Program-made: the position numbers and the translations under genes
The notes under the pieces: model-generated
Database searches by the model: none
Told to the model about the DNA's origin: nothing
What the model saw: the letters and a program-made list of their open reading frames with translations, nothing else
Part shown: piece after piece, positions 397-57,691 of the stretch
Layout of the letters: each line of letters opens with the position of its first letter
Numbering within the stretch: the first letter of the stretch is position 1
Assembly (NCBI GenBank): GCA_012295275.1
Contig: CM022675.1
Coordinates: 4,526,001 to 4,590,000, forward strand
DNA: 64,000 bases
From: Chrysomallon squamiferum
Lineage: Eukaryota > Animalia > Mollusca
Direction: 5' to 3'

Positions 397-3300
397 TTAA
401 TCAGAAGTAACAGCATCAGCGATGTCGTAGAGGTCGCTGTCAGCTTGGTTAAGATGGTTATACAATTCTGATGTTGTTGTTGCTGTTGGAGGTTTTCTGT
501 CAATTGTGTCGTAGTCTTCTGAATCGACGAGGTGGTTGTAGACGTCAGATACAGTTGAAGTTGTCTTTTCTTTGTTTGTGCTGTCGTAGTCGAGATCATT
601 GTCAACACCAAGCCGGTTGTAGACATCAGACGTTGTTGTTTTCTTTTCCTTATCACAGGTATCGTAGTCACCGTCGTTGTCCCCAGCAAGGTTAGATTTA
701 TGAGTTGTTGTATTTGTTGTGTCTGTGCTGTCGTAGTCTCGTTCATGACTGCTTGAGACCTGTTTGTCTACTTTAGATGTCGTAGTAGCTGCCGTGTTGA
801 TATACGGTGTGTCGTTGTCTCCGTTGTTGTGGTCAGCAGTAGATCTGTTAAAGGGAAGTACATTAACATCTGCTTTAACATCTGCGATGTCGTAGTCGTT
901 ATCATTTCTGTTTTCCACGTTGACAGTAACTCCATTTGGGACGTTGCAGTAAACACTGTGGTTCCCTTGATTTTCTGATTCAAACTCATAATCTGCCGAC
1001 GTCGATGTCGTTGTTACCTCATAACTCGGATTTGCGTGATCACGTTGTAAATCTTCAGCAGAGCTGGTTTCATTGTTTCTTTTGTTAAATGTAATTCTTG
1101 ATTCTTGTAACTTCTGAGTTTTAAAACAAAATCTACGTGTTCTGAAAAAGAAAAAGTACACTACATATATGTACAAACAAACATACCTTCATAATATATA
1201 TATATATATATATATATACACACATACATTATACACGTATCATCATACATATATTTCAAGAAACTTACCGTTTAATCCACAATAAAATCACGACTGCGAC
1301 AAACAACACTACTACAACAGCAGCAACACCACCGCCAGCTAGTGCTACAAATTACAGAAATTAATTGAAATAAATAAGTCATATGGCATATGAGAGAGAG
1401 AGAGAGAGAGAGAGAGAGAGAGAGAGAGAGAGAGAGAGAGAGAGAGAGAGAGAGAGAGAGAGAGAGAGAGAGAGAGAGAGAGAGAGAGAGAGAGAGATGG
1501 CTTTGGTGATGTATATTCAATCCAGATATTTCCAACATAAAAGAAATTTAGTGACAAGTTATATTTATAATATTATTTTTCAAGTAATATTTTCTTAAAG
1601 CGGATGAATACATACAGATAAATATACTGGAAACCGACTTACTGCTTTTTATAATCGTCAATATCTATACAACAAAATTATTTCTCAAATCAAATAATAA
1701 ATATAATAATGGTGATGATGATGATGATGATATTGATACTAACAGTAATAAAAAAAAAAAAAAAAAAAAAAAACCAACTAAAATCGATTAAAGAAATGTT
1801 TACCATTTGTTGTTTGGAAAGAAATGTTGCGTGCCAAAGTTCACCTAAAATATAAAACTATTACATCATAGAACTATCATGATCATCATGTTGTTTTATT
1901 ATTATTATTACTATTATTATTATTATTATTATACGTGTTTGGTTAGGAGAAAGAAAATCTTACTGACCAGGTATGTTTTCTCTGTTACCAACTTCCGACT
2001 GTGCGCTACTTTTAAGTGGAGTTGTCTCCCTTCTCTTATACTGAGACGTTGGTGCTGCATTCGTGTTATGTGTAGTAGACTCTGGTAACTGTTCTGTCGG
2101 TGCTGAGGTCGTCGGGTTTTTCGTGTTTGGATAGAATGTTGTTGTTTCTACAGTAGATAGGGATTCCCTGGTAGTTGTCGATGATGTTGTTGTTGTAGAC
2201 TTTGTTACGTTTTTGTCTACAAATTCAATCAAGAAGTTAACATAGATGTACAAGATGTAATTAATAAGTACAAAAACATAATTAATAAATAACGATTGGT
2301 CATTTTCGCTAGTTTGAAGATGAAATATTAAATGATAAATAAATAAATATGTGTAATGTAACAACGACATCAACAACAGTAATATAATTATTATTCTTCC
2401 TCTTTTTGTTTACTTTTTCATGAAATTTTTTTTTATAAAACTTTAAAAAAAAAATTAATCTATAAATTAATTAATGAATAAGGAAGAAGAAAAAGGTGTA
2501 CTTACATTTTTGACAAACTGATTTCTTTTTTAAATTAGACTCTAAAATGTTTATATCAACTTTGAAACGGGGAGGGAGAGTTAGCCACTTCCAATCCTTT
2601 GTCCACGTCATGCTTTCTGTAAACTTTGCATCATTATAATGTTCATGTATTACTGAACCTGTTAGAAAACACAAATCAGTATCAGTGAAATGCACAATTA
2701 TGTCTCCTACAAGTATAAAAATACTGCTATTTCTTCCTTTACGGTCACCACCACTACTACTGCTACTGCTGCTGCTGCTACTATTATTACTGTTACTTCT
2801 ACTTCCACCATTACCACTACTACTACCACCACTACTACTGCTACTAGTTATAACCGTATACTGCTTCTACTGTTACTACTACTGCTACTATTGCTAGTGC
2901 TGCTGCTGCTACTATTATTACTGTTACTTCTACTTCCACCATTACCACTACTACTACTACCATTACTACTGCTACTATTGCTACTGGTGCTGCGGCAGCT
3001 ATATTATAGGCAACTAAAGCGGCAATTTCCACAGTCTATAAATAAAATGATGTGTATGACTTTTATTAACTGTACTTTGGTGATATGAAGAAATAGTCCA
3101 AACGTTTCAGCTTACTTCCTCGTTATGCTTTATTCGTTTTTTTTTTTTTTGTTTGTTTGTTGTTGTTATTTTAAGTAAAGCAGCAAAATAACTCAATTAA
3201 AAATGTCTGGGACTGTCTTTTTTCTGTAGTCGTAAGATAATTGTAAAAAGAGCGGCTCTGTTTTGAAGACATAAAATGGCGACTTGAAATATTTTCTAAC

Positions 3301-56000: not shown

Positions 56001-57691
56001 AAAAGATGAAGCAGTAGTTGCCGCAGTGACAGTTTAATAGTAGAAGTACACCTGTCTGTGTGCCCAGTTTGTCTGTGTGTGATTCAGGTAACATAAAACA
56101 AGGATATATTTAACACTTTTTCTTTTAAATTCAGTGTTTATGAACAGAAGAATTTGCTAATCTGTAAATCAAAAATAATTATATATTTAACACTTTTTGT
56201 TAACATAATTCAGACTTAATGAAGAGAAAAAATTACGAACCTGCAAACCAATTTTTCCATTGCTCGGTTTACATTGCTGGAAGCATTTAAAAGCATCATT
56301 GTCTTGTATTGAGTATCTACTCCTCAAACTCCCAATATCGATATCTCCAACGTACTGGAATAATGTTTCATTGGTCTCTGAAAACAAAAACTAAAACAAT
56401 AACAACAACAAGAACAACAACAGCAAATAATAATAATAATAATAATAATAATAATAATAATAATAATAATAATAATAATAGTAGTAGTAGTAGTAGTAGT
56501 AGTAGTAGTAGTAATAAAAAATAAACAAAATAAATAAATAAAAAAGAAACAGCCTGTTTATGTATTCATTAATTGTGTTATAATTGTTATAAGTGCGTTT
56601 GTTGTTACTGTTGATGTCGTAGATAATGATCAGTTTATAAAATGAAACTTTCATAAAACATAAAACATTTATTTATGTTCTAACCGACATTTAAATTATT
56701 GATAACAGAATACCTACCAGTCTACATCCACGGTGTATACGTCTCTAAAGCTCCTACCCAATAGTCTTTGTCTTCTTCCATTACAGAAAAAAGTTTGTTT
56801 TTATCTAAATTAGAATGATGAACAACGAGTCTGCCTCCTGCCTCCTCACAGCCAGAATACGCTGCCTCCCACCAAGTTTGTTTTTTATCCAGTGTAAAAT
56901 ATTCTTCTAACATTTCTTCTTGTTTTCTGTCAGACCACGGACCTGTGTTAATTTATTGATATTTATCTTAATTATTTATTTTGCATTATGTTGATGAAAT
57001 TCTATGTTATGTTAGATATACGTTTATACATTCGTGTTTTACTTATATTGTATAAATTTACACACACTTATTGACACTGTTATGTCTTATACATTTTTAA
57101 ATAATTACTTAGTTATGCTTTGCTGTGTTTTAGTCCAGTTACGTCATACTGTAATATGTAATACTGGAACGTTATTATTATTGTTATGTTGAGTTATGCT
57201 ATATTATTTTATATATAATATTGCTGGTTTTTTTGTTAAAACAAAATACGTTGGCTTATGTTGCATTTATAGTAAATAGTTTATTTTTAAAATATGTTAT
57301 GTCATAACGTGCTAGTTTATGCTGATATGTTAAATGCTATTGCGTATTGTTGTTACCCTATGCAGTTACTTAATATCCAGCATTATCATTATTGTTGTTT
57401 GGTGTCCTCGTTATTATTGTCGTTGTTGATGTTGTTAATGTTGTTACTGTTATTACTGCTACTGTCGTTGATGTTATTATTGTTGTTTTTGTTGTTATTA
57501 TTATTATTAACTATGATACGAGCATTTCATGTTAAACATTTGGGTTATGTCCCCTTGTCTTTGAGATATTTGAAAAGTTTTTGAAGTACAACGTACTGTT
57601 AATATAAATAAATAAACAACTTACTTAATCTTTCTGCACCTGTAACCTTCTTGTAGATCGTTAATATAATCACTGCAGTTACTAAATTCAT
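53040..57691 (-). pseudogene. Receptor copy 7 with premature stop, fused exon and tail frameshift
   Basis: Exons 57625-57691; 56718-56942 (TGG>TAG, PWM-stop); 56241-56377; fused WSC-C/CTLD2-N exon 55657-55810; 55252-55383; stalk 54621-54770; TM 54058-54133. The tail from 53614 has a +1 indel near 53519 and a stop at 53491. Confidence 0.85.

Follow-up and report, generated by a model that had tools for sequence, protein, structure and literature searches.

A tandem array of mosaic genes for predicted lectin-like receptors with tyrosine-rich tails in Chrysomallon squamiferum

The 64,000-nucleotide stretch of the Chrysomallon squamiferum genome analysed here (assembly GCA_012295275.1, contig CM022675.1, positions 4,526,001 to 4,590,000; hereafter the window, with positions counted from its first letter) carries a tandem array of genes for predicted single-pass receptors with lectin-like ectodomains. 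It is AT-rich (~30% GC), holds many microsatellites and has a single 200-N gap (44465-44664). Self-blastn and exon tblastn of the window resolved seven gene copies, all on the minus strand and numbered from G1 (right) to G7 (left), confirming the tandem array of at least seven same-strand copies that a first-pass annotation had read from the sequence. Start codons lie 7.9-10.5 kb apart. An eighth minus-strand copy is likely, since a 3' flank resembling those of G5, G4, G1 and G7 is found at 63550-64000, its body falling outside the window. Spacers between units are 75-90% alike (e.g. 11300-14500), so entire 8-10 kb units have been duplicated; the family 3' flank unit also occurs as an inverted copy at ~59950-60620. 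Spliced by coordinates, the genes follow a 10-exon model with phases 1,1,0,1,1,1,1,1,2. Exon 1 measures 67 nt in the five copies that have it, exon 2 225 nt in the five full copies, exon 3 137 nt in six of six, exon 4 either 124 nt (G2, G7) or 130 nt (G3, G4, G5), and the transmembrane (TM) exon 73-76 nt in all five spliced copies, in agreement with the sizes and compatible phases annotated earlier.

The copies differ widely in their state. G5 (20276-15012) has a 613-aa open frame that uses GT-AG sites only, with exons 1 to 7 at 20276-20210, 19472-19248, 19086-18950, 18501-18372, 18107-17973, 17774-17580 and 17392-17252, exon 9 at 16277-16202 and exon 10 at 15747-15012. This frame skips the stalk exon, whose acceptor is deleted, and stops 50 codons short of the YFVLE C-terminus of the family, an ending that G2 has in frame and that lies further downstream in G5 and G7. 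Lesions were compared with reads in G5 only, specifically at its stop: at position 15014 all read depth in four runs shows the read-through letter, and the stop is therefore private, rare or an error. G4 (30786-~24100) is near-intact and has all 10 exons, at 30786-30720, 29956-29732, 29518-29382, 28982-28853, 28615-28481, 27830-27600, 27277-27146, 26699-26610, 25960-25888 and from 24988. It is open only through the exon 5 donor, which reads AT, and has a 1-nt frame slip near its end. Exon 6 of G4 is also partly duplicated just upstream (27692-27802 against 27903-28013, region 27830-28010).

The other copies are more damaged. G3 (40481-34430) has type-B exons 3-5 (see below) and a second lectin-like domain of a type of its own; its exon 5 acceptor is lost (it reads AT), exon 6 is frameshifted and the tail is shortened by a deletion common to G1. 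G1 (57691-~52860) is a pseudogene, with a nonsense codon in exon 2, a deletion that fuses exon 4 to exon 6 and frameshifts in exon 10; its make-up is mosaic, combining type-B exons 3 and 4, G4-like exons 6 and 7, and G3-like exons 8 and 10. The short exon 10 deletion of G1 and G3 (~53050 and ~34435), which ends the tail early, could mark a short-tailed subfamily instead of separate decay. G2 (48372-~43650), with a type-A ectodomain, bears a nonsense codon in exon 3; its exons 8-9 fall within the N gap, and the visible part of the tail is open to the YFVLE C-terminus. G7 (5265-397), also of type A, has neither exon 1 nor the 5' part of exon 2 and shows a 1-nt loss at the exon 5 acceptor, a long stalk exon (2216-1968), a TM exon at 1344-1269 and a premature tail stop at 397. 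That coordinate had been given as the left boundary of the family; it is this premature stop. G6 (10401-~8330) is a remnant with only exon 7 (10401-10243), the TM exon 9 (9235-9161) and a decayed exon 10.

A HMMER search of 1.84 billion representative proteins with an exon 2 profile gave 53 matches at E<=0.001. The best match and two others are proteins of the peltospirid snail Gigantopelta aegis that RefSeq calls 'uncharacterized' (LOC121385366, LOC121385671 and LOC121385519; entries P0006, P0023/P0054 and P0001), each on a contig whose length, 35.4 Mb, is identical for all three. Besides these, the 18 of 53 matches looked up include seven unnamed single-exon fragments of the array family type, and most of the remaining matches (8 looked up) look like generic multi-CTLD (C-type lectin-like domain) proteins. 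Our spliced models are colinear with the Gigantopelta proteins, two from signal peptide to tail (E 1e-60 and 4e-36) and the third over the first CTLD/WSC part only, so the exon order is independently supported. G5 shares 35% identity with P0006 (E 1e-60) and 43% with P0001 (E 2e-67). The three loci resemble the array in domain order (the two full-length ones), Cys pattern and Tyr-repeat tail, at 26-43% identity; they differ in belonging to another species, and have neither name nor assigned function. Word-indexed protein searches gave weak negatives (no match for exon 2 or for the exon 4 alignment, and only itself for the P0006 ectodomain), and a metagenome locus scan confirmed 0 of 74 loci. 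The Gigantopelta genome paper lists CLECs among pattern recognition receptors, and the portion of its text available to us does not name this family (PMC7895826). The first-pass annotation recognised no named family, and that judgement stands: we found no description of a CTLD-WSC-CTLD-TM-Tyr-tail architecture in the open-access literature, subscription papers being outside our scope. The array appears to represent an undescribed receptor family, familiar in category and unusual in domain arrangement.

The ectodomain starts with exon 2, which encodes the N-terminal half of a CTLD: Pfam Lectin_C scores 22.8 bits on exon 2 of G7 (cut-off 22.6) and 24.9 bits on both P0006 and P0001, and the best PDB sequence matches are the lectin domains of CLEC4 and CD69. 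Exons 6-7 encode a second, degenerate CTLD, scoring 30.1 bits in G5, 19.1 in G4 and 14.4 in G2 with a hidden Markov model (HMM) built from 182 generic CTLDs. Exons 3-4 are predicted, with support from fold, to be a WSC domain. Among 48,161 chains searched with the low-confidence P0001 model, only four reached Z>=5, all on residues 104-203: Wsc1 (Z 5.8), a fungal glyoxal oxidase (5.7) and Kremen1 (5.6 and 5.5), with a root-mean-square deviation of 2.7-2.9 over 66-68 residues; we take the glyoxal oxidase and the two Kremen1 entries to be WSC-bearing. Foldseek ranked Wsc1 second for the same model (prob 0.69, E 0.19). The WSC region has six Cys in G4 and G5, and a canonical WSC domain has eight.

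Exon 5 likely completes the first CTLD, with the WSC domain nested inside it, an arrangement so far weakly shown. Once the insert is taken out, the hhalign alignment extends over 100 columns (prob 97.7) and puts three Cys in register; exon 5 alone has no CTLD score (prob 0.4), the N and C halves together do not rise above shuffled controls in an HMM test, and on the low-confidence P0001 model the fit of solved CTLD structures around the WSC does not exceed Z 2-3. The last Cys of exon 5, the would-be partner of the first Cys of this CTLD, is absent from G3 and G4 (37724 and 28481) and kept in G2, G5 and G7. If the nesting is true, the two domains would together form a composite module for recognition, of which we found no description. 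Downstream, a single hydrophobic TM peak follows a Ser/Thr-rich stalk and the tail is C-terminal, indicating type I topology; modest hydrophobicity, together with the homologues, suggests a signal peptide. The annotated order of signal peptide, CTLD with WSC, CTLD, stalk, TM segment and Tyr tail is thus borne out by Pfam, fold and colinear homologues, apart from the weakly shown nesting. In the ESM Atlas, the tail falls in a mollusc-dominated hypothetical cluster (0.90) and the ectodomain in lectin, PAN and WSC clusters (<0.9), which we treat as leads only. Pfam matches to Phage_portal, RtxA, MetallophosN and Adeno_E3 scored far under their cut-offs and were taken as chance.

The tails are 190-290 residues long and rich in Thr, Asp, Asn and Ser. 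The scan of five window copies counts 13-15 Tyr per tail, that of two Gigantopelta tails 18-19. Acidic YD motifs alternate in them with Y[NS][HRNQ][LI], a motif defined on the window tails. Each of these has 2-4 copies of it, and each Gigantopelta tail, which serves as an independent test, has 3, where ~0.04 are expected. The pattern YxxL/I-x6-9-Y, recognised post hoc, is found 2-3 times in the five window tails (0.14-0.28 expected) and may correspond to the spacing of an ITAM (immunoreceptor tyrosine-based activation motif) whose second half is degenerate. NPxY is present in the G4 and G5 tails. No enzyme family reaches its cut-off.

Similarity between copies changes abruptly along the gene. 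Nucleotide identity is 88-99% in exon 1, 92-98% in exon 2 and 79-92% in exon 10. Exons 3-5 come in two types that share 50-67% of nucleotides (A in G2 and G7; B in G1, G3, G4 and G5), and exons 6-7 in four or five types (50-83%). Synonymous divergence (dS) is at most 0.07 in exon 2 for all pairs; one intron away, in exon 3, it is saturated between A and B. At the protein level A and B share 44-45% over exons 3-5, and each shares 42-52% with two Gigantopelta genes; for exon 2, window copies share 84-96% with each other and 41-52% with Gigantopelta. Approximately unbiased (AU) tests on whether the cassettes predate the Gigantopelta split rejected neither order (p 0.46 and 0.24). G1 groups with G3 on exon 10 and with G4 on exons 6-7, and AU tests, for groups chosen after viewing the identity tables, reject G1+G4 on exon 10 (p 3e-8) and G1+G3 on exons 6-7 (p 0.005). 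To judge from these comparisons, the copies are mosaics of homogenised ends and very old ectodomain cassettes; the birth-and-death turnover proposed earlier is supported. Homogenised ends around cassettes as divergent as the genes of another species clearly illustrate how receptors can evolve by modules. Assembly mis-joins could lie behind part of the mosaicism, notably in G2 next to the gap.

Two local observations concern the same exons. G2 (44665-47562) and G7 (2277-5265) are 95-100% alike over exons 3-7, and 98% alike over the 576 nt adjoining the N gap, which may reflect a recent duplication, a conversion event or the tandem placement of two haplotypes. Exon 2 has 27 variable sites, none in its first 61 nt, and most are replacements within codons 41-59, which may form a variable surface of the first CTLD.

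Read data indicate that at least one paralogue is expressed. Part of the G4 tail region is present in 9 of 11 listed runs from three studies, two of the runs being RNA. A contig of RNA run X8 leaves exon 10 at its acceptor and continues into the TM exon where the genome has an intron; in a comparison by eye of this contig, aligned to G5, 27 of 30 letters of its TM exon match G6 and 26 of 30 match G7. One TM exon-tail exon junction of a paralogue is thus spliced, short of the full-length transcript that would join all annotated exons. Two further X8 contigs end at most 2 nt from both borders of exons 2 and 3. There was no RNA joint among the joint-table rows listed, with 45 more rows beyond them. 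Summed DNA depth over exon 10 and exon 2 is ~18-41 times that of G5 exons 6-7 in both DNA runs; such summed depth is not a copy number, and paralogues and alleles are not separable in the read contigs, so the figure is a hint of tens of copies genome-wide.

Which known systems does the array resemble? In Biomphalaria, clustered polymorphic single-pass receptors control parasite resistance, according to the part of the source available to us (PMC4361660). The PTC1/GRC, PTC2 and CTL/FN3/Ig/TMEM154 clusters of that snail resemble the array in that they are gastropod groups encoding type I single-pass proteins whose ectodomains diverge, and in having duplications and truncated alleles; they differ in that their ectodomains are chitinase-like, FN3, Ig or CTL and that their link to resistance is genetic (PMC4361660, PMC10875847, as far as these texts were accessible). 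The Gigantopelta homologues have a weak, below cut-off TMEM154 match (E 3e-4), no Biomphalaria protein is among the 18 of 53 exon 2 matches looked up (the PTC sequences themselves were not compared), and the word WSC has no occurrence in the main text of PMC10875847 and PMC13712769. By analogy, the array may work like the GRC/PTC clusters, on the portions available of PMC4361660, PMC10875847 and PMC13712769. Bivalve CTLD proteins with WSC are likewise uncharacterised mollusc proteins proposed to be immune; they are called bivalve-specific, and the accessible text describes no nesting, TM segment, Tyr tail or tandem arrays, although its Figure 7 or supplements may show a similar protein (PMC10140915).

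We regard it as moderately probable that the array is a type I, tandem, birth-and-death family of non-catalytic receptors engaged in immune or microbial recognition; its anatomy and evolution are read from the genes, while ligand, signalling and immune role are what we infer by analogy. The divergent CTLD-WSC-CTLD ectodomains would recognise varied foreign ligands, most probably microbial surfaces, and the receptors would cluster when ligand binds. Phosphorylation of the acidic D-x-D-Y-D and S-D/E-V/L-Y-N/S-H/R-L tail repeats by a Src-type kinase could follow, allowing SH2 proteins (Syk/Shark, SHP2 or Grb2/Nck-type) to dock, a step proposed because the tail has no catalytic domain. In oyster, the ITAM receptor CgIgR recruits Syk for signalling (PMC6994640, from the part of the article available). 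The near-identical exons 1-2, tail and intergenic sequence probably serve as anchors for unequal crossing-over or gene conversion, by which old ectodomain cassettes would be swapped between copies and many dead copies left behind. A bolder version, which we consider improbable, is a vent-snail repertoire of tens of genes in which a WSC replaces the ligand-binding loop of the lectin fold and ancient recognition cassettes are shuffled onto a shared signalling tail of tyrosine repeats, the repertoire telling bacterial symbionts from pathogens. Few invertebrate receptor families join high diversity to a signalling tail, and this one offers concrete, testable candidates for the recognition of bacteria by chemosymbiotic molluscs, an open question.

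Several observations weigh against this immune reading. None of the seven copies in the window is pristine, so that, of the mix of intact, truncated and decayed copies annotated earlier, the truncated and decayed ones hold up and a fully intact one does not. Pfam matches to WSC stay under the cut-off (E 0.011 on a half domain, 0.0012 on P0006): the profile check came out positive for the first half of the CTLD and negative for WSC, whose case is made by fold. With WSC and several CTLD matches at or below Pfam cut-offs, profile-based surveys of lectins and pattern recognition receptors can overlook the family. Both AlphaFold models are poor, with a predicted local distance difference test (pLDDT) score of 45 for P0001 and 40 for the P0006 ectodomain, which makes the latter unusable and a Foldseek search from it meaningless. 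In Ca2+-dependent C-type lectins, EPN or QPD and WND are the sugar-binding motifs; none was found in G4 or G5, the two of seven copies scanned, and Ca-dependent sugar binding is therefore unsupported. A full ITAM (YxxL/I-x6-9-YxxL/I) occurs in none of seven tails, window and Gigantopelta together, and inhibitory motifs (ITIMs), at 1-2 per tail against 0.35-0.53 expected, were judged to be at chance level. RNA cover is thin, and run X7 contains intron-spanning pieces. Besides the post hoc choice of AU groups, AU tests on exon 2 are not significant (p 0.22 and 0.32). In comparisons of ectodomain types, dN/dS stays under 1 in every case with a measurable dS, so positive selection is not supported and old diversity appears retained under constraint; the excess of replacements in exon 2 rests on few, non-independent sites.

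The most probable alternative, which we hold to be rather unlikely, is that these receptors serve non-immune recognition, such as adhesion, matrix or mechanical sensing, gamete recognition, chemosensing or settlement. The WSC fold matches include a yeast mechanosensor, Wsc1, and a Wnt co-receptor, Kremen1; the layout of Wsc1 is itself a WSC domain, Ser/Thr stalk, TM segment and tail. To this add the lack of sugar-binding motifs in G4 and G5 and the presence of sea-urchin REJ/PKD1 proteins in the literature listed for WSC with C-type lectin. Polycystin-1 has both WSC and CTLD. Kremen1, Wsc1 and polycystin-1/REJ are, like the array proteins, membrane proteins with WSC, whereas kringle, CUB, LRR, PKD and REJ domains are absent from the array proteins, as is a multi-pass TM region. 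High turnover, many pseudogenes and deep cassette diversity are less easily squared with a developmental receptor than with an arms race, although gamete recognition would fit them too.

Less probable still is that the locus is a graveyard or a construct of the assembly, made of dead duplicates whose mosaics are partly mis-joined haplotypes or paralogues, with function residing in a few copies elsewhere. The lack of any pristine copy, the near-identity of G2 and G7 over exons 3-7 next to the gap, the absence of the G5 stop from all read depth at that position in four runs, and the G4 tail region, of whose sampled words the best DNA run contains no more than 0.55, would all agree with it. However, types A and B keep their Cys and reading frames despite saturated dS, so both have long been under purifying selection; DNA run X1 contains G5-like exons 6 and 7, with 1 difference in the former and 4 in the latter; one paralogue is expressed in spliced form; and the disparity in depth between exons 2 and 3 recurs in two separate copies (G2 and G7).

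The analogy with vertebrate NKC/Ly49/KIR receptors and the Hydractinia Alr complex drawn by the first-pass annotation holds in that all are clustered, pseudogene-rich and non-catalytic with Tyr motifs, and fails at the level of the motifs: those receptors have true ITAMs or ITIMs, here absent or at chance level. The ectodomains of Alr and KIR are of the Ig superfamily, whereas those of the array match CTLD and WSC; Ly49/NKC receptors are type II, with an N-terminal tail, whereas the array family is type I. The homologues, moreover, come from a solitary snail, in which tissue-fusion allorecognition would not be expected. A self/non-self complex like Alr, with allele-specific homophilic binding, is thus very unlikely: Alr genes are likewise clustered, with pseudogenes, exon shuffling and Tyr-motif tails (10.1101/2022.03.04.482883, accessible part), but their ectodomains are Ig/Fn3 and many of their tails bear true ITAMs.

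The window also contains satellite DNA. The place of the G7 5' end is occupied at 5266-7090 (no strand assigned) by a satellite with units of 178-190 bp, TTAGGG runs and a 75-copy hexamer tract (TTAGGG/TCAGGG, 5346-5798), which adjoins G7 inside exon 2. A related array, with units of 178-190 bp and short TTAGGG runs, lies at 58917-59924.

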